Positions 19,283 to 64,000 of a stretch of DNA of 64,000 bases are shown in pieces. The DNA lies in the IMG/VR virus record IMGVR_UViG_2974649431_000001, positions 92,282 through 156,281 of that record. One strand, written 5' to 3'. This stretch comes from a virus. Lineage: Duplodnaviria; Heunggongvirae; Uroviricota; Caudoviricetes. Under the pieces are notes generated by a model that made no database searches, had not been told where the DNA came from, and saw only the letters and a program-made list of their open reading frames with translations. The position numbers and the translations under genes are program-made. Position 1 is the first letter of the stretch, and the number at the start of each line of letters is the position of its first letter.

Positions 19283-19571
19283 CCCTCCCTGGGCAGACCT
19301 CGCGGGCAACCTGACCTACTCCCTTTACTGGAACTCCGGTGGAGGGCACTTCGTCCTCAGGGCTGCCCTGGACTCCGAGCATCCGGAGTGTCTCTACAAC
19401 TACATCAAGCGCGCCGGCTTCGTCCCCGAAGACTACGGGATCGAGAAGAGCCCGAGCGTGGATGACCAGAAGACCATCGACCTTTGCGCGTCGATGAGCC
19501 GGCAAGATCTCATCCAGGAGATTCTGTCTCTTCGCCGCCAGATCCAACTCATGGAGGAAGCAGGACTGTGA
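19239..19571 (+). CDS. hypothetical protein (110 aa)
   Basis: ORF; overlaps the upstream gene by 44 nt. Confidence 0.35.
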   Translation: MQPSTVPAPFERANDPPWADLAGNLTYSLYWNSGGGHFVLRAALDSEHPECLYNYIKRAGFVPEDYGIEKSPSVDDQKTIDLCASMSRQDLIQEILSLRRQIQLMEEAGL

Positions 19572-19939
19572 CCACGATACGAGAACTCGCCGCATGGGCG
19601 TCCGCAGTGGACAGCCTCGCGGCCAAGTCACTGAAGAAGGTCGAAGCCAAGATCGAGGAGACCGGCGAGAAGCTGGACCGCCTGGAACATGAGCGCCGCG
19701 AGCTCATCCGCACTGCGAAAGTCGTGCGCTGTGAAGCATGCGGGGCCGATCATTCCCTGTCGGAACTCGACGCGGTCTACCGCTACGGGTGGAGCAACGA
19801 GGCCTACAACGAGCACAGCTACCTGAGCTCCATCGAGTTCAATCTCCCCTGTTGCGGCGCTCCCTTCCGCTTCAGGGAGCCCAAGAAGTTAGAATTCTAT
19901 GCGCCGCTCTTCAAGTCGGCGTCCACCGCGGGGTACTAA
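19568..19939 (+). CDS. hypothetical Cys-containing protein (123 aa)
   Basis: GTG start overlapping the upstream TGA with RBS GGAGGAAG. CEACG...PCCG. Confidence 0.45.
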   Translation: MTTIRELAAWASAVDSLAAKSLKKVEAKIEETGEKLDRLEHERRELIRTAKVVRCEACGADHSLSELDAVYRYGWSNEAYNEHSYLSSIEFNLPCCGAPFRFREPKKLEFYAPLFKSASTAGY

Positions 19940-34126: not shown

Positions 34127-34505
34127 CCGCAACCTTGCGGACGCACTCCGCCTCGCCAACGACCTCGTGGAAGCCTGCGCGCAGCTCGCCCACAACGCCA
34201 ACCGCGCCTACTGCGAAATGATCGGCGACTTCAGCCAACTCCCGTGGGACGCCGCACCGGAGTGGCAACGGGAAAGCGCTCGCCAGGGTGTGCGCTTCCA
34301 CCTGGACAACCCGGACGCCGGCCCCAGCGGTTCTCACGAGTCCTGGCTGAAGGTCAAGGAAGCCGAAGGCTGGCGCTACGGTCCCATCAAGGACGCCGAT
34401 GCCAAGACGCACCCCTGCTTCCTCCCCTATGACGAACTGCCGAGTTCCCAGAAGCTGAAGGACTACATCTTCACGAGCGTCGTGAAGGGCTTCTTCACCG
34501 AATGA
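34107..34505 (+). CDS. RyR-domain protein
   Basis: WLKVKEAEGWRYGPIKDADAKTHPCFLPYDELPSSQKLKD resembles the RyR (ryanodine-receptor) domain seen in phage proteins. Confidence 0.5.
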   Translation: MSSSLNDRNLADALRLANDLVEACAQLAHNANRAYCEMIGDFSQLPWDAAPEWQRESARQGVRFHLDNPDAGPSGSHESWLKVKEAEGWRYGPIKDADAKTHPCFLPYDELPSSQKLKDYIFTSVVKGFFTE

Positions 34506-34708
34506 CCTACGGACTGAAGGACGTCGCGAAAGACGTCCTGACGGGGCGCGTGCAACACGCTGAGCCCCAAGTGGTGCAAGACCGTTTGAAGACCTGCCAG
34601 GGCTGTCCATCCTACAGACAGACCATGAAGGTGTGCGGAGACTGTGGGTGCTACTTGCCCGCAAAGACCAAGTTCGCGCAATCCACTTGCCCCCAAGGGA
34701 AGTGGTAA
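34502..34708 (+). CDS. zinc-ribbon protein (68 aa)
   Basis: CQGC...CGDCGC...C. Confidence 0.45.
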   Translation: MTYGLKDVAKDVLTGRVQHAEPQVVQDRLKTCQGCPSYRQTMKVCGDCGCYLPAKTKFAQSTCPQGKW

Positions 34709-35166: not shown

Positions 35167-35520
35167 ATGTACAAATCTCGATCGCATCGCGCCCTCGAAA
35201 GTCTGTTCCCGCGCGAGAGACACGCCTTCAAGGAGTCAGACGACAGCAGCATCCTCTCCCTGGTGGAGTGGGTAGCAGACGGTAAACCCTTCGTCTGGAA
35301 GATGGAAGCCTCCAATGTCAGCCCCAAGACCGGTAAGGAGGTCGAAGTCTGGTTTGCCCAGGGACACGGCATCAGTGCAATTGTCATCGATGGCCGCGTC
35401 GGCGATTGGTGCGGTGATCGCACCAGCGGACCAGGTGCTGCGCGCAACCTGCAAGCCGAATACTTCGTTGCCGTCAACACCGGAGTGGGCTGGCGGTTGT
35501 TCGAAGAAATGGCGAAGTAA
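35167..35520 (+). CDS. hypothetical protein (117 aa)
   Basis: RBS CAAGGAG. Confidence 0.5.
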   Translation: MYKSRSHRALESLFPRERHAFKESDDSSILSLVEWVADGKPFVWKMEASNVSPKTGKEVEVWFAQGHGISAIVIDGRVGDWCGDRTSGPGAARNLQAEYFVAVNTGVGWRLFEEMAK

Positions 35521-35536
35521 CATTCTCCTTCCAGTC

Positions 35537-35568
35537 GGGGGCCTTCGGGCCCCTTTCTGCTGTACAAT
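35537..35568 (+). promoter_or_regulatory. terminator hairpin plus TGTACAAT -10
   Basis: GGGGCC-ttcg-GGCCCC + TTTCTGC, then TGTACAAT (35561-68), at the start of the long non-coding region. Confidence 0.5.
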
Positions 35569-36029
35569 CGCAGCTCTTTGAGCCTGCACAATCAAGCGGT
35601 AACGCTGCGGGCTAGTCGTTATGTGTCATTGGGTTGAACTACTCCGTCCTTCTCGGGAGTGTGACGGTAAATCGGGGCCCACGTGGTAAACGGCTGGCAG
35701 GCCAACACGTTAAAGAGCAGCAAGGTCTGACCCTCTAGGGGCAGTCAGTAGGTTCGGGCGACGCCTGGGGCGAACACTGTGAGCAAGAGGGAGTCTCAAA
35801 ACAGACCGAGACGCATTCGACGAAATGCAGCGCCGAGGGAGTAGCCATTCAACAGGTTCCACGGCGTGGGCGTCATTGGGGTAACCCGCGTACACGATAA
35901 AGGGCGATTCGCATGACCCGTCCTGCCTTTGATTGGGCCAGTGTGTTGAACATGGTGAGGCAGAACTATACTGACACCACGGAACGGCTCAAAGCCGTTT
36001 CACGGCTCCGCAATCCAACCTGAAAGACT

Positions 36030-36194
36030 ATGATGAAAGAAAGTGTGGACTACAAAGGGCACTGCCTCTGGAAGAACAGTGAAGCGCTCAGGCTCTACCA
36101 TGAAGCGCAAAAGGACAGGAGGCTCTTCAAAAAACTCGATGATCATTTGAAGGACGTTGACCGCAGGGAAAAGGAACTGCTGGCTCGTCTCTAA
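36030..36194 (+). CDS. possible small protein (54 aa)
   Basis: Only ORF in the 35.5-36.2 kb region; weak RBS. Highly uncertain. Confidence 0.2.
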   Translation: MMKESVDYKGHCLWKNSEALRLYHEAQKDRRLFKKLDDHLKDVDRREKELLARL

Positions 36195-36235
36195 AGGTGG
36201 TACAATCCACTGTGTTCAACACAAAGGAGTTCTTC

Positions 36236-36688
36236 ATGAACGGTTACAAAGGGATGCTGTGCGCAGCATTGCTGGCTGCCTGTGCTTCGGCAGCAGCTCA
36301 AGACAGTGGTGTGCTCATCACGCGCAAGGCTGCGGGCACGGTCATCGCTTCCACGCCTCGCGCTGAGCAGAAGGTCTGTGCGGATGGGGGCGTCAACGGA
36401 GCCCACGTTGCCGGTGGCCTTCTGGGTGGGGCAGCAGGTGCAGGAGCCGCGAAGTTCTTCCGCCTGGGCAAGACTGCAACGGTGATCAGCGGCCTCGCAG
36501 GTGGTGCGGCCGGCACGATGATCGGCAACCAGGTCAGCAAGGACTGCAAGACCGTTCCTGCAGGCCACGACATCAGCGTCGAGTTCGCCGACAAGTCCGA
36601 GGTGCTCGTGAACTCCTCAGCTCCCCGCGTCGTCGGCAGTTCTGCTGTCGTCCTCTTCTACTCCAACGGCACGTTCGGACTCCGCTAA
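36236..36688 (+). CDS. glycine-zipper lipoprotein (SlyB / 17-kDa-antigen-like)
   Basis: Signal peptide with lipobox LAAC. GGLLGGAAGAGAA and GLAGGAAGTMIG glycine-zipper motifs. TGGTACAAT -10 and RBS AAAGGAG upstream. Confidence 0.55.
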   Translation: MNGYKGMLCAALLAACASAAAQDSGVLITRKAAGTVIASTPRAEQKVCADGGVNGAHVAGGLLGGAAGAGAAKFFRLGKTATVISGLAGGAAGTMIGNQVSKDCKTVPAGHDISVEFADKSEVLVNSSAPRVVGSSAVVLFYSNGTFGLR

Positions 36689-40874: not shown

Positions 40875-41267
40875 ATGACATACCTCATCAATGTTCTCCT
40901 CAGCGCGCAACCCTTCCTGGTGGCTGCGCTGGTCATCGCAGTGTTGGGCTTCGCAGTTCCCCGGCTGTTCTTCTACGCAGTCAACTACGGTCACAACACA
41001 TTCAGTCACACCCTGCAGGACTACATCGACCGAGGTACCCACGTTCTCGCCGGTGTCGTTGCAGTCGCCGGCATCACCTTCGGGCTCATCGCAAGCGGGA
41101 ACACCACCAAGCTGGGCTCCGACGGGAAAGCGCAGGCACAGCAGGCGATCGTGCAGCAGCTAGAAAGCCCACCCACCGCGGGTCCTATCGTGGACAAGAG
41201 CAGGAGCACTGCAAAGTCCGCGAGTGACAGCAAAGCCGACTTCGACGAGATGGTCAGGTACAAGTGA
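40875..41267 (+). CDS. membrane protein (130 aa)
   Basis: Multiple hydrophobic segments. Confidence 0.5.
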   Translation: MTYLINVLLSAQPFLVAALVIAVLGFAVPRLFFYAVNYGHNTFSHTLQDYIDRGTHVLAGVVAVAGITFGLIASGNTTKLGSDGKAQAQQAIVQQLESPPTAGPIVDKSRSTAKSASDSKADFDEMVRYK

Positions 41268-41282
41268 AAGAGTTCGTACCAG

Positions 41283-41305
41283 GGGCTGAGAAGCCCCATT
41301 TCGTC
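41283..41305 (+). terminator. terminator-like hairpin
   Basis: GGGGCT-gaga-AGCCCC + ATTTCGT. Confidence 0.4.
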
Positions 41306-41524
41306 AAGTACGGCATCTGGACGTGCTACACGGTGGACGCTCAAGGGGAGAAGGCTATGGCGTGACCCCTAAGGACGCGCTCAGCAACTACCGATTCTGG
41401 ATGGAGTTCTCCAAGCCGCCTTTCCGTGCGTTCATGGCGCCGCCGAAAAATTTCTTGGAAAAGTTCTTGGAATGGATGAAAGGCGTATATAATAGAGGCA
41501 ACTAAACACTTTCAGGAGAACAAC

Positions 41525-41740
41525 ATGGCAAAGAACCAAACGTCGCTCGACAACATCCTCATCGGCTCGCTCAACGAGATCGCAAGAATCCGTAAGGAAG
41601 CGCTCGCCGACATTCAGAAGGTTTGCAAGTCTGCGAGTGGCACCGTCGATTCTTTCCGGGATGAAGTGCAAAAAATCCTGGACGTCGAAGAGCGGCGTGT
41701 CAAGGAAGCGCTGGATAAGCGTGCGCGTGCACTGAAGTAA
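41525..41740 (+). CDS. hypothetical small protein, paralog A (71 aa)
   Basis: QTSLDNILIGSLNEIARIRKEALADIQK; paralog of 41827..42075. Confidence 0.5.
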   Translation: MAKNQTSLDNILIGSLNEIARIRKEALADIQKVCKSASGTVDSFRDEVQKILDVEERRVKEALDKRARALK

Positions 41741-42076: not shown

Positions 42077-42544
42077 ATGCTCGAGAACCCAACGACATCG
42101 TGGACTTGCTTCCACTGCGACGAGCGCTTCGACACGCCGGAAACGGCAGCGGAGCACTTCGGCCGAACCGACTATCAGAAGCCGGCGTGCCAGGTCGACA
42201 TCGCCGAGTACCGAGCGATGGAGCAGCGGCTTCTCGCGTACTCCGCTGAGGACACCGACCTCCATCGCGAGCTCGAGGCTAAGCTGAGCGCACACCAGTT
42301 GGCGCTTGAACGCGCGGAGGAAAGAGGGTACTCCAGGGGCCTTCGAGACGCCAAGCGCTTTCCCGCTGACCTAGGTCTCGTGCCTAGCGAAGACCTGGAC
42401 AACCTGAAGAGCGACCTCTACAACCTGGTCGTCGCCATGGACTCTGTCCGCGACCTGCTGGTCAGGCAGCACAAGATGCACCACAGCGACTTCATCGTCG
42501 AACTTGCGGGTGTAGTGACGGCAACGCCCCGCATCACGTTGTAA
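42077..42544 (+). CDS. hypothetical protein with N-terminal CxxC...H zinc-finger-like motif
   Basis: WTCFHCDERFDTPETAAEHF. Confidence 0.5.
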   Translation: MLENPTTSWTCFHCDERFDTPETAAEHFGRTDYQKPACQVDIAEYRAMEQRLLAYSAEDTDLHRELEAKLSAHQLALERAEERGYSRGLRDAKRFPADLGLVPSEDLDNLKSDLYNLVVAMDSVRDLLVRQHKMHHSDFIVELAGVVTATPRITL

Positions 42545-42553
42545 GGACGCCAC

Positions 42554-42706
42554 ATGCTCGCCATCGCATACGCCCTGCTGAAAGCAGCCCTAGTCACGCT
42601 TGGCTGCTTCGCTGTGATTGACGCTGTACGCCCCTCCACGAAGATGGGCATCAAGGTGGGCTGGGGTCTGCTGTTGGCAGCGGTCTCCCTTTGCCTGGAC
42701 CTCTAA
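42554..42706 (+). CDS. small membrane protein (50 aa)
   Basis: Sub-threshold ORF with two hydrophobic segments; RBS AAGGACG. Confidence 0.3.
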   Translation: MLAIAYALLKAALVTLGCFAVIDAVRPSTKMGIKVGWGLLLAAVSLCLDL

Positions 42707-42707
42707 A

Positions 42708-42792
42708 GTTCCTGGAACTGTTACATCTTTTTTGTCAAACTGTTTGAAATCTTTGTTATACTAGCGGCACAGCAAAGGAAATGCTGCTTTTT
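42708..42792 (+). promoter_or_regulatory. degenerate class-A promoter copy 4 with leader hairpin
   Basis: Perfect palindrome AGTTCCTGGAACT (42708-20). -35 TTGTCA (42732-37) and -10 TATACT (42757-62). Leader GGCACAGCAAAGG. Hairpin CAGCA-aaggaaa-TGCTG followed by TTTTT (42770-92). Confidence 0.5.
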
Positions 42793-42811
42793 AACTCCCA
42801 GGAGATACATC

Positions 42812-43780
42812 ATGGCACACGAAATCACCAACACCAACGGCATGGACGAAATGGCCTTCACGGGCAGCCGTGCTGCAATCTGGCATGGCCTCGGCCAAGA
42901 ACTGCCGGTCGGCGCAAGCATCGCTGAGTGGCGCAAGGCCGCCGGCATGGACTGGGAGGCGATGGAGTCCCTGGTCAGCTACAACGCCCTCGGCGAGACC
43001 AAGTTCGCACCGGACAAGAAGCTGCTGTTCCGCAGCGACAACAAGGAAGCGCTGGGCATCGTCGGCAGCGACTACAAGATCGTCCAGCCGGGGCAGGTCC
43101 TGGGCTTCTTCGACGACCTGACCAAGCTCCATGGCATGCGCCTCAGCACTGCTGGCACGCTGTTCGGCGGCAAGCGCTTCTGGGCACTCGCCGAGACCAG
43201 CAACAAGGCCGACGTGGTGGGTGGCGACGAGGTCGGCGCATACCTGCTGCTCACGACCAGCGTGGACGGGACGATGTCCACCCAAGCGCGCTACACCAGC
43301 ATCCGCGTGGTGTGCAACAACACCCTGACGATCGCACTCAGCGGCAACGCCAAGCGCGCTGTGAAGATGACGCACCACCGGGAATGGGACCCCACGCAGG
43401 TCAAGATCGACATGGGCCTGCTGGGCGAATCCTGGGCCGGCTACCTGGGCAAGCTCCGTGCGCTCAGCGAAATCAAGATGAGCGAGCAGGACACCCGCAA
43501 GTTCTACGAAAAGATGTTCTATAATCCCAGCAAGGCAGAGCCGACGACCGCTGAGCAGCGTACCGTCGACATGCTGATGGAAAAGGCCTTCGCTGGCATC
43601 GGCAGCGAGATGAGCGCCGGCACCGCCTGGGGTGCGCTGAACGGAGCCACCGAGCTCTACACGCACTGGAAGGGCAATCGCGACCTGAGCCGGCAGTTCT
43701 GGGACGCGTTCGCCGGTGAGCAGTCTGATAAGAAGGACATGGTCCTCAACGGCTTGGTCGAACAGTTCGAAATCGCATAA
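42812..43780 (+). CDS. DUF932-family protein
   Basis: LFGGKRFWAL...YLLLTTSVDGTMS...RVVCNNTL matches the DUF932 pattern. Confidence 0.55.
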   Translation: MAHEITNTNGMDEMAFTGSRAAIWHGLGQELPVGASIAEWRKAAGMDWEAMESLVSYNALGETKFAPDKKLLFRSDNKEALGIVGSDYKIVQPGQVLGFFDDLTKLHGMRLSTAGTLFGGKRFWALAETSNKADVVGGDEVGAYLLLTTSVDGTMSTQARYTSIRVVCNNTLTIALSGNAKRAVKMTHHREWDPTQVKIDMGLLGESWAGYLGKLRALSEIKMSEQDTRKFYEKMFYNPSKAEPTTAEQRTVDMLMEKAFAGIGSEMSAGTAWGALNGATELYTHWKGNRDLSRQFWDAFAGEQSDKKDMVLNGLVEQFEIA

Positions 43781-54981: not shown

Positions 54982-56097
54982 ATGAGCGACACCAACCTCA
55001 TCTTCAACAAAGACATGAAGGCTGAGGAATACGGGGCAATGCCCCTATTCTTTGGCCCTCCGCCGGGCCTCTTCGACACCATCCACCGGACGTACCCCAA
55101 GATCTGGGACTTCTACAAGGAGATGAAGTCGCTGGACTGGGACGAGCAGGAGTTCGAGAAGGGCTTCCAGCGGTGCCAGACGGACTTCGAGACCTGTGAC
55201 CCCACAGTGAGCTGGATGATGAAGCGGACGATCGCATGGCAATGGGAACAGGACAGCGTCGCAGCGCGTGCTCTCGGCCCCGTGCTGGCACCCTTCATCA
55301 CTGCACCGGAGTATTGGGCGGCCATCCAACGGGTCAGCGACAACGAGGTGATCCACGCGGCGACCTACTCGGAAATCGTCCGCATCAGCTTCCCCAACCC
55401 GAAGGAGGCGCTTGCCGAGATCCTGGAGGTCCGCGAGAGCCTGCAGCGCATGGACACCGTGACGAGGGCGCTCGCCGACCTCTACGAAGCCAGCCACAAT
55501 TGGGCGCTCCGTCGGATTCCCTACAGCCAGGAGCTCTACAACAAGGTGTTCGTGGGCGTCGCAACCATCCTCATGATGGAGCGCATCCAGTTCATGGCGA
55601 GCTTCGGCATCACGTTCACGATCTGTGCACAGCAGCTCTTCCAGGCGATCGGAAAGGCCGTCTCCAAGATTGCGCAGGACGAGCTGGAAGTCCATGTGCA
55701 GCTCGGCAAAGAAGTCCTGGCGATCGAGATGGCTACGCCCCGTGGACAGCTGGCTCTCCAGCAGACCAAGGAAACGCTGAACCGGATCTTCTACGAGATC
55801 ATCGCGAGCGAAGAGACATGGCTGGACTACATGTTCGCCGAAGGCCGCGAGCTCGCAGGCACCAACCTGAAGCTGATGAAGCAGTGGGTATTGTTCAACG
55901 CCGCTGACCCCGGCGTGCTGCTGCAGCTGGACATGAGCAAGCGGGAGTGGCCCAAGAAGAACCCCATGCCCCACTTGGAAGAGTGGCTGAACATGAACAA
56001 GATCCAAGGCGCTGCGCAGGAGCAAGAGCTGGCAGCATACAAGGTGAACCTCACCGTCGACAACCTCGGGGACGAAGTCCTCGACGTCGACTTCTAA
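54982..56097 (+). CDS. nrdB: ribonucleotide reductase class I beta subunit NrdB
   Basis: Di-iron ligand blocks (NEVIHAATYSEI, MERIQF, QDELEVH). 371 aa. RBS AAAGGA. Confidence 0.9.
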   Translation: MSDTNLIFNKDMKAEEYGAMPLFFGPPPGLFDTIHRTYPKIWDFYKEMKSLDWDEQEFEKGFQRCQTDFETCDPTVSWMMKRTIAWQWEQDSVAARALGPVLAPFITAPEYWAAIQRVSDNEVIHAATYSEIVRISFPNPKEALAEILEVRESLQRMDTVTRALADLYEASHNWALRRIPYSQELYNKVFVGVATILMMERIQFMASFGITFTICAQQLFQAIGKAVSKIAQDELEVHVQLGKEVLAIEMATPRGQLALQQTKETLNRIFYEIIASEETWLDYMFAEGRELAGTNLKLMKQWVLFNAADPGVLLQLDMSKREWPKKNPMPHLEEWLNMNKIQGAAQEQELAAYKVNLTVDNLGDEVLDVDF

Positions 56098-56103
56098 GGA
56101 GCG

Positions 56104-56367
56104 ATGATGTATCCCGGACGTGAAGAGTTTAGTTTTCTCCAGCTGCTATATAATGGTGAGCTGAAGTACCTGTTCGACGAAGGTCGGTACAAGTTCTACA
56201 CCTACCGTCCGGGCATCCGGATCGACTCCCAAAGCGGTTACGCTGTGGATGTCTTCCGGCATGACAGGGTCATGGGTCTCGTGAAGTTCAAGTTCGCGGG
56301 CATCGATGACTGGGAAGAGGAAGACAGCGACATTCTGAAACACTTCGGAGTCCACGGACTCCACTAG
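56104..56367 (+). CDS. hypothetical protein (87 aa)
   Basis: ORF. Confidence 0.45.
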   Translation: MMYPGREEFSFLQLLYNGELKYLFDEGRYKFYTYRPGIRIDSQSGYAVDVFRHDRVMGLVKFKFAGIDDWEEEDSDILKHFGVHGLH

Positions 56368-63888: not shown

Positions 63889-63931
63889 AGAAAGCGCCGA
63901 AATGGCGCTACAATAGTGGCTAAGTAACAAC

Positions 63932-64000
63932 GCGGAGTAGCTCAGTTGGTTAGAGCGCCGGACTCATAATCCGGAGGTCGCAGGTTCGAGTCCTGCCTAC
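63932..64000 (+). tRNA. tRNA (anticodon CAT; Met or lysidine-modified Ile2), truncated at the window edge
   Basis: D-arm TAGCTCAGTTGGTTAGAGC. Anticodon stem-loop CCGGA-CTCATAA-TCCGG. Variable loop AGGTC. T-arm GCAGG-TTCGAGT-CCTGC. 3' acceptor strand cut after CTAC. GCTACAAT box 20 nt upstream. Confidence 0.8.

Follow-up and report, generated by a model that had tools for sequence, protein, structure and literature searches.

Only a few large RNAs with complex folds are known from bacteria and their phages, and RNase P, the introns, OLE, HEARO, ROOL and GOLLD have each opened new biochemistry. ROOL and GOLLD measure roughly 580 and 800 nt, respectively. The pRNA of phi29 (~170 nt) belongs to a phi29-like podovirus motor that has no TerS, and the RNAs C and D (species 1 and 2) of T4 are ~120-140 nt long and are encoded within the tRNA cluster. 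ROOL and GOLLD form homo-oligomeric cages (PMC12286853), and the Vibrio phage ICP1 makes an abundant non-coding transcript of ~800 nt whose role is not known (PMC7567579), a precedent for lytic phages carrying abundant large non-coding RNAs (ncRNAs) without a known role (PMC7567579). Here we describe a locus in a 64,000-nt stretch of viral DNA (IMG/VR record IMGVR_UViG_2974649431_000001, positions 92,282 to 156,281; hereafter the window), which blastn identifies as part of Acidovorax phage ACP17 (KY979132.2, genus Busanvirus) at 100% identity; window positions equal KY979132.2 record positions minus 92281. This T4-like myovirus has a terminase pair, regA, RNase H and genes of the gp5, gp6, gp13, gp14, gp19 and gp46/47 types. 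In our preferred reading, window 35575-36029 (+) is probably a stand-alone gene for a structured ncRNA of ~450 nt, which is one of two ACP17 paralogues, represents a previously undescribed family and depends on its fold to act in trans. That the element belongs to a real structured ncRNA family is very probable, while the proposal that the RNA acts in trans through its predicted fold is evenly balanced.

Like ROOL and GOLLD, the element is a large multi-helix phage ncRNA with a transcription unit of its own (predicted here), was found by covariation rather than by homology to a ribozyme, and has a role that is likewise not established. It differs from both in being smaller (~330-450 nt), in residing in lytic T4-like phages of Proteobacteria instead of mainly in Firmicutes prophages, and in occurring as two paralogues, one of them fixed in the terminase operon. 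Moreover, GOLLD, at ~800 nt, often lies beside tRNAs, whereas the ~450-nt ACP17 element does not: the only tRNA in the window, at 63931, is 28 kb away. The ICP1 transcript is similar in that an ORF-less gap (ORF, open reading frame) of a lytic myovirus gives a large ncRNA, but that transcript is known from expression, without a published fold, while the ACP17 element is known from its predicted fold alone. With the phi29 pRNA it has in common that a phage-encoded structured RNA is tied to packaging, the tie here being position between the terminase genes only; T4-type motors, by contrast, are active in vitro without any RNA. The two stable RNAs of T4, C and D, are also ncRNAs of a T4-type phage without known function, but the element is three times larger, lies at another location and has no tRNA-like element.

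No described RNA family accounts for the locus. In the whole window, Rfam at gathering thresholds reports only a tRNA-Met truncated by the window end, and this tRNA-Met (CAT; 63931-64000) is the sole RNA gene detected in the 64 kb by either Rfam or ARAGORN. At E <= 10, window 35300-36500 gives two noise hits only, and the Rfam scans of homologous loci (three at E <= 1 and five further at E <= 0.1) give nothing relevant; the hits dismissed as noise were Zeta-pan, snoR35, a flavivirus stem-loop and sR14. A first-pass annotation of the window, made from the sequence without database searches, had suggested a large structured RNA at this place and named GOLLD, ROOL, HEARO, introns, tmRNA, RNase P and 6S RNA as candidates. 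These are excluded by the Rfam scans, including the cmscan run that it had advised and that matched no family at the locus, together with ARAGORN, which finds no tmRNA in the window. The ROOL and GOLLD covariance models match neither the window nor three homologous loci, and tmRNA, RNase P RNA and 6S RNA have no Rfam match at E <= 10. There is no model match for HEARO/IscB omega-RNA, and the neighbours of the window copy (ACP17_A) are small hypothetical genes and a lipoprotein gene. No Rfam match is found for a group I intron; ACP17_A is flanked by complete genes and preceded by a terminator and a promoter-like element, and the second copy (ACP17_B, see below) lies, unlike such an intron, on the strand opposite to terS and terL. 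Group II introns likewise give no Rfam match and ACP17_A has no reverse transcriptase ORF, while the core sequence GUGUGAC, which resembles a group II boundary, is absent from the second subfamily. A phi29-type pRNA has no Rfam match either, and the element is 2-3 times larger. Some likenesses to RNase P motifs (GGCUAAUCG, CAACAG and GUAAGGG...CACCGC) were dropped given the lack of any RNase P model match. Literature searches found no published description of the element.

Searching related phages with blastn and nhmmer, as the first-pass annotation had advised, did reveal relatives of the element. At this locus, Variovorax phage V45v66 alone gives a DNA match outside ACP17, a 62-nt block (window 35626-35686) that sits in a comparable ORF-free gap of ~515 nt; pairwise alignment of the two phages adds more conserved blocks with indels between them. 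The V45v66 element, used as a query, leads to a second, unannotated place in ACP17 (record 56007-56110, minus strand), and a profile built from the first two sequences retrieves exactly four copies, two in each phage, namely: ACP17_A (window 35558-36028, +); ACP17_B (KY979132.2 55737-56152, -); V45_A (PV558790.1 43912-44345, -); and V45_B (PV558790.1 98554-98978, +). In each phage, the B copy runs antisense to terS and terL in the space between them, with ACP17_B placed within a 660-nt gap (KY979132.2 55634-56293; L047 6634-7293; L041 3818-4477).

The same arrangement recurs in more distant phages. A tblastn search with TerL ranks the Menderavirus phages of Stenotrophomonas and the Xanthomonas phages X1 and BUDD as nearest, followed by Pseudomonas phage pf16, with a TerL identity of 52-69% across the clade. 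In Ps15, X1 and BUDD, a terS-terL gap of ~500 nt holds a divergent relative of the element, antisense to the terminase genes. Altogether, a gap of 500-660 nt with an antisense copy is present in ACP17, V45v66, the Menderavirus phages, X1, BUDD and one IMG/VR contig. In pf16, terS and terL overlap, and in the IMG/VR TerL relatives that were checked for spacing the two genes are adjacent or overlapping; relative to these outgroups the gap is a derived insertion. Ps15, X1 and BUDD have their second copy downstream of NAMPT, in an accessory-gene arm, where it shares the strand of its neighbours; ACP17_A lies in the same arm, ~13 kb past NAMPT. By blastn, the element is present in 17/17 Stenotrophomonas records and 2/2 Xanthomonas records, in two places in every complete genome. 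Flanking DNA no longer aligns between phages that keep the element.

Outside these phages, few further copies came to light. Among 80 IMG/VR loci with TerL relatives, the element occurs only in IME-SM1 itself and in one new contig (L212, 616-914, minus strand). Pattern scans of IMG/VR gave chance matches alone for GGGAGTGTGACGGTAA (10 matches) and GCATTCNNCGAAATGCAG (17 matches), none for CGTCCTTCNNGGGAGTGTGAC or for TCCGTCCN{8,11}TGTGACGGTAARYC, and IME-SM1 and Moby only for CTAGCCGTCGGCTAA. In metagenomes and genomes, the first pattern found nothing and a looser one returned 109 loci, two of them real and both near-identical to V45_B; no copy on a bacterial chromosome was found in the genome pattern scans. 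As the IMG/VR, metagenome and genome scans added so few contigs, the family appears to be rare and restricted to one clade of T4-like myoviruses with Burkholderiales and Xanthomonadales hosts.

Several observations concern the terS-terL gap itself. Apparent gaps in four IMG/VR relatives were an artefact of ORF filtering and hold ordinary terS genes or other ORFs. The GenBank records of Yut2, Yut3, Marzo, Mendera and Moby carry ‘hypothetical protein’ ORFs inside the gap; these are probably spurious calls, not being conserved in relatives. In L212, the RNA and terL are separated by an extra ORF of ~88 amino acids (aa) that has the same strand as the RNA (975-1243, -) and is absent from the isolates. 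In ACP17, a 14-nt palindrome, GTACTTATAAGTAC, between terL and the RNA presents a late-promoter-like TATAAGTA on both strands. In addition, the annotated start of ACP17 TerL seems too far downstream: the frame runs ~70 nt further upstream (VSINIQDCYLGNVKLKKTGVAQE; L041 3817-3917), and the extended frame aligns with the N-terminus of V45v66 TerL.

Consensus structures were computed with RNAalifold from the four Burkholderiales-phage copies (subfamily 1) and from six Xanthomonadales-phage copies (subfamily 2). The former has 73 pairs, 23 of them with compensatory change, and the latter 44 pairs, of which 13 show such change. Alignment cells are paired in 89% of cases in subfamily 1 and 94% in subfamily 2, as opposed to 36-44% and 29-44%, respectively, when the partners are slid by 1-3 columns. 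The compensatory pairs likewise exceed both controls: 23 against ~11 in shuffles and 5-9 in slid controls for subfamily 1, and 13 against ~5 and 1-5 for subfamily 2, with 0/500 shuffles matching the observed values in each subfamily. The covariation check proposed in the first-pass annotation, run here by such pair counting, thus came out well above its controls, and tables for the individual helices record repeated independent double changes. The MAFFT alignment of the 3' domain was excluded, one hairpin being mis-registered in it.

In ACP17_A, the predicted RNA body spans window 35575..36029 (all features here are on the + strand); its 5' end is putative, and the profile search aligns 35558-36028. 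Near its 5' end lies one strand of a long-range closing helix (35588..35594), whose partner (35947..35953) falls inside the conserved GUGUGUUGA block. This helix, indicated by alignment and covariation, is weak in ACP17_A (5/7 pairs), a perfect 8 bp in ACP17_B (CACAGUCA/UGACUGUG) and 6 bp in V45_B (GUCGAA/UUCGAU). Within the best-conserved block (35640-35686), the core hairpin P2 (35644..35667) reads CCGUCCUUC-UCGG-GAGUGUGACGG with two bulged U; its base, CGUC/GACG, is invariant in every member, and its upper stem stays paired while the sequence differs by group (CUUC/GAGG, GCUA/UAGU, GCA/UGC). A hairpin UAGCC-GUC-GGCUA in the RNAalifold model of subfamily 2 is probably wrong, the version common to subfamily 1 and L212 being CGUCG...CGACG. 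Downstream of P2, a CGUG/CACG helix surrounds a CGGC/GCCA hairpin (35682..35709), its outer pairs invariant and its inner stem varying with compensation.

A central multi-helix domain closed by GGCG/CGUC follows (35757..35874; alignment and covariation). It contains the hairpin CGCAUU/AAUGCA (35812-35829), which covaries (GCAUU/AAUGC, GUACC/GGUAC and GCACU/AGUGC), and a further helix seen in the alignment and by covariation (35830-35841/35857-35867). The domain at ~35812-35895 is specific to the ACP17/V45 subfamily and absent from that of the Xanthomonadales phages. Further 3', all nine distinct members have hairpin P-a (35901..35924; AGGGCG/CGUCCU), in which one G-U pair and a CCG-type loop motif are conserved and the inner pairs show compensatory changes (C-G, U-A; G-C, A-U, U-G). 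Directly 3' of it, every member has a hairpin at the place of P-b (35925..35938; GCCU/GGGC), with sequences elsewhere such as CCCC-UUCG-GGGG, CUGCU-GGGA-AGCAG, CCC-GAAA-GGG and GUUC-UCAU-GAAC; several of these hairpins have GNRA or UNCG loop caps. The 3' hairpin (35982..36001; GAACGGCU/GCCGUUUC) covaries across the family, with AACGGC/GCCGUU in the window copy and UUUGGC/GCCAAA, CUUCGG/CCGAAG and ACUUGGGCU/AGCCUAAGU as variants. Sequence conservation ends with the motif CCUGAAAGAC (36019..36028), as seen in the alignments.

Four elements, namely the 5' hairpin, the AGGGCG/CGUCCU hairpin, the adjoining hairpin and the 3' hairpin, occur in the same order across both subfamilies. The complete motif set (CUA-N-CGUC...GACG; AGGGCG...CGUCCU with the G-U pair and CCG loop; the adjoining hairpin; and the 3' hairpin) falls within window 35640-36001 and is found in the same order in the other eight distinct members. 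Four hairpins had been singled out in the first-pass annotation; all are in the sequence, but relatives keep only two, the AACGGC/GCCGTT hairpin, identical to the 3' hairpin above, and in part CTGAC/GTCAG. At the position of its ACTCC/GGAGT hairpin, the consensus has a conserved CCGUC/GACGG hairpin instead.

The sense of the RNA can be judged from several features. The consensus fold energy is -53.2 in the + sense vs. -43.7 kcal/mol in the reverse sense for subfamily 1, and -38.0 vs. -30.8 kcal/mol for subfamily 2. G-U pairs are far above A-C pairs in every copy, including those in the terminase gap. Upstream of ACP17_A, a hairpin resembling the terminator of the preceding gene (GGGGCC-TTCG-GGCCCC, 35538-35553, then TTTCTGCTG; 35538..35558 in full, +) is followed by TGTACAAT (35561..35568, +), a -10-like promoter element from which a start site near 35575 is predicted. 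Both had been pointed out in the first-pass annotation and are read directly from the sequence; a simple terminator scan did not list the hairpin. The homologous copies have extended -10 or sigma-70-like elements at the same upstream place (TGGTAGAAT, TGCTAGAAT, TTGTTT-17-TATAAT and TGTAAGAAT). Fold energy, G-U excess and the promoter-like elements favour the window + strand as the probable RNA sense.

GenBank has no annotated feature at window 35521-36029 in KY979132.2. The first-pass annotation had described a 715-nt gap free of ORFs, and it is correct that all internal ORFs between 35520 and the start of the lipoprotein gene at 36236 are <=61 codons; the true non-coding span, however, is ~509 nt (35521-36029), as 36030-36194, in the 3' third of the interval, is an annotated coding sequence. 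Its argument from an excess of stop codons fails, since the 51 stops in six frames are what random sequence of the same composition contains (57 +/- 6 in composition-preserving shuffles), and the longest open run (92 codons vs. 104 +/- 26 in shuffles) is random-like as well. The GC content on which it relied, 60%, is locally 54-57%. The stretch lacks the stop depletion typical of coding DNA and contrasts only with the surrounding genes, being the most ORF-poor tile in the 64-kb window (0.4-0.7 percentile). In alignments of relatives, mismatches are spread evenly over the codon phases; most indels have lengths not divisible by three, many being of 1, 2, 4 or 5 nt; and peptide-level similarity is confined to short stretches in several frames and on both strands. 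No conserved ORF exists among the relatives, none of which has an intact gene at the site. On these phase, indel and peptide data, a decayed or hidden gene is judged very unlikely.

Taken together, conservation without alignable flanks, two copies per genome, a fixed position, covariation, the absence of a coding signal and the lack of an Rfam match indicate that these structured RNAs of phages appear to form a genuine family that had not been described before. Conservation, covarying helices and lack of coding signal thereby bear out the central proposal of the first-pass annotation, that a large structured and possibly novel ncRNA lies here. Its unusual traits are the pair of paralogues per genome, the reversed copy between the terminase genes and the 5' core that is identical within a genome. 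The hosts include Acidovorax citrulli, Stenotrophomonas maltophilia and Xanthomonas campestris, which are cultured biocontrol or therapy systems, and such cultured phage-host pairs make experimental work directly feasible. At minimum, the annotation of ~20 deposited genomes is corrected, in which the gaps are blank or filled with spurious hypothetical ORFs.

The Burkholderiales-phage and Xanthomonadales-phage subfamilies are probably homologous. Synteny, copy number, orientation and motif order agree between them, and nhmmer profiles of the two find one another reciprocally as best hits, with locus and strand correct but E-values marginal (0.065 and 0.13); in a search with a covariance model of 46 positions built from one subfamily, ACP17_A comes third (E = 0.8). 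Within a subfamily, any two copies share 63-71% identity overall, yet the two copies of one genome can have an identical 5' core: 32 nt in ACP17 (window 35643-35674 and KY979132.2 around 56060), and 42 nt in each of Ps15 and X1 (copies in L157, L163, L158 and L160). Six positions separate the core of Ps15 from that of X1. V45v66 has no long identical core, its copies sharing only blocks of 12-13 nt. The identity of cores within a genome appears to reflect concerted evolution, for which gene conversion of the most constrained 5' segment would be the simplest explanation, with a shared nucleic-acid or protein partner as the alternative.

In the preferred reading, host RNA polymerase would transcribe the RNA from its own -10-type promoter, probably early in infection. 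The RNA would then work by its folded shape, whether as a scaffold that binds proteins, as an RNA-only assembly or as a ribozyme, and not by long antisense pairing or as a leader. Such shape-based action would be in keeping with other large phage RNAs, namely ROOL, GOLLD and the ICP1 transcript (PMC7567579, PMC12286853), and the 32-42 nt identity would be kept by gene conversion of the 5' core or by the shared partner.

Several points weigh against this reading. The consensus structures derive from the same alignments that were used for counting, which inflates the contrast with the controls, and the family comprises only nine distinct sequences. The fold of the single sequence is no more stable than those of shuffles (z = -0.52). 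The link between the subfamilies depends on synteny, motif order and marginal E-values, and the covariance model did not recover the other subfamily significantly. The promoter, start site and 3' end of the RNA are predictions. ACP17_A has no terminator before the 54-aa ORF that follows it, and could serve as a leader of that gene. Finally, the present analyses do not separate scaffold, ribozyme and regulatory roles.

Of the alternatives, the one that survives best, though unlikely, is a regulator of the packaging genes, in which the terS-terL copy would be cis-antisense to read-through late mRNA while the second copy pairs in trans via the 32-42 nt core, so as to set the timing or balance of TerS and TerL synthesis. 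Such a role fits the B copy, whose position and opposite orientation are fixed in all genomes, and the 5' cores, which are identical within ACP17, Ps15 and X1 and different between genomes. Antisense action, however, needs no conserved fold, and the helices covary along the whole molecule; the two V45v66 copies, besides, have in common only blocks of 12-13 nt. Moreover, a hairpin just after terS in ACP17 could terminate in both directions and a late-promoter-like TATAAGTA precedes terL, so that read-through of the gap is not required.

A slightly less likely idea is that the RNA is part of the T4-type packaging or late-assembly module (binding terminase, portal or procapsid in the manner of pRNA), or else a new class of ribozyme, with the paralogue as partner in a hetero-oligomer. 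Were the packaging role true, a T4-like terminase operon would for the first time have an RNA component tied to it.

We consider it doubtful that the copies are origin transcripts, i.e. folded RNAs that persist as a DNA hybrid and prime the leading strand at two origins per genome, as in ColE1 or T4. ColE1 RNA II and the T4 origin transcripts are likewise promoter-driven folded RNAs of a few hundred nt at discrete replicon sites, and ACP17 and its relatives have two promoter-driven (predicted) copies per genome, of a size like that of ColE1 RNA II; the DNA downstream is somewhat GC-poorer. The element loci nonetheless show no clear origin signature and no sequence similarity to these RNAs, and neither iterons nor a marked AT-rich unwinding element is apparent. 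Cumulative GC skew dips to shallow local minima close to the A copies (127 kb in ACP17, 44 kb in V45v66), but these are within noise and no inflection is found at the B copies; the case from GC skew is not convincing. To our knowledge, T4 origin RNAs have no conserved complex fold, and we know of no T4-type origin that needs a conserved fold of 400 nt.

There is somewhat less to be said for a DNA site, in which the core is a recognition site for TerS (pac-like) or a recombination site present twice and the fold is secondary; a synapsis model of this kind, involving T4 gene 16 and gene 19, was reportedly put forward by Black and co-workers. The B copy abuts terS in all genomes, and perfect identity over 32-42 bp in three genomes stands out against ~65-70% elsewhere. 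Compensatory changes and the excess of G-U pairs, on the other hand, point to selection on a single-stranded fold over ~400 nt, V45v66 has no long identical core, and gene conversion of the most conserved segment is a simpler cause of the identity.

To the same low degree we credit a relic or passenger of a mobile element (an ORF-less intron, an insertion sequence-derived guide-RNA scaffold or a unit like a miniature inverted-repeat transposable element) that was inserted at two sites in the ancestor of the clade. It is true that the gap is an insertion vs. outgroups with overlapping terS and terL, that the element is multi-copy, and that free-standing mobile elements abound in T4-like genomes, with a homing endonuclease gene present in ACP17. 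However, models of mobile RNAs, among them the group I and II introns and HEARO, give no match, and there is no adjacent reverse transcriptase, IscB, TnpB or endonuclease gene and no terminal repeat; the position is stable and vertically inherited over a deep divergence (TerL 52-69%), with the structure under purifying selection.

The part of the interval that is a gene bears on the next alternative. The ORF of 54 codons at 36030..36194 (+), outside the RNA, had been noted as a weak candidate in the first-pass annotation; it is annotated as ASD50483.1, matches PHROG 6391 (E = 3.8e-8) and appears to be a real small gene and not RNA, even if a set of 5.8 billion proteins holds no relative of the protein but itself. 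It may be co-transcribed with the RNA, as no terminator separates them in ACP17, and the conserved CCUGAAAGAC stands at the expected ribosome-binding site of the ORF. A long structured 5' leader or riboswitch of this gene is nevertheless an improbable account of the element: the 54-aa gene is absent downstream of the other RNA copies, every one of which has different downstream genes, the terS-terL copies face terS convergently without a downstream gene on their own strand, and a separate promoter follows V45_A. Least probable of all, and largely refuted by the sequence comparisons given above (no conserved ORF, even phase mismatches, frame-shifting indels, short peptide matches on both strands and no relative with an intact gene at the site), is the decayed gene that the first-pass annotation had left open, or a cluster of unannotated small protein genes, for which the hypothetical proteins annotated in the gap in some relatives' GenBank records might be cited.

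Beyond the 54-aa gene, TGGTACAAT (36198..36206, +), also picked out in the first-pass annotation, is present and can be read as an extended -10-like element before the lipoprotein gene (36236-36688, +; match to PHROG 15869). The idea that GTACAAT is a recurring promoter ‘box’ was abandoned, with 2 sites in 64 kb vs. 1.8 expected. About 1 kb upstream of ACP17_A, the window encodes a 68-aa zinc-ribbon protein with four cysteines (34502-34708, +; PHROG 13558, E = 6e-31), and the same protein, with 47% identity to that of ACP17, is encoded ~1 kb upstream of V45_A (L002 3610-3816); the IMG/VR loci of more distant zinc-ribbon relatives have no RNA homologue nearby. The next most ORF-poor tiles of the window, 41151-41650 and 42476-42925 (longest open run of 71-75 codons in 450 nt), give no Rfam hit at gathering. 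Finally, a 426-nt ‘gap’ before the NMN adenylyltransferase gene, which has no relevant Rfam hit at 19569-19939, contains there an unannotated ORF of ~123-151 aa on the + strand that is coding-like and has CxxC motifs.

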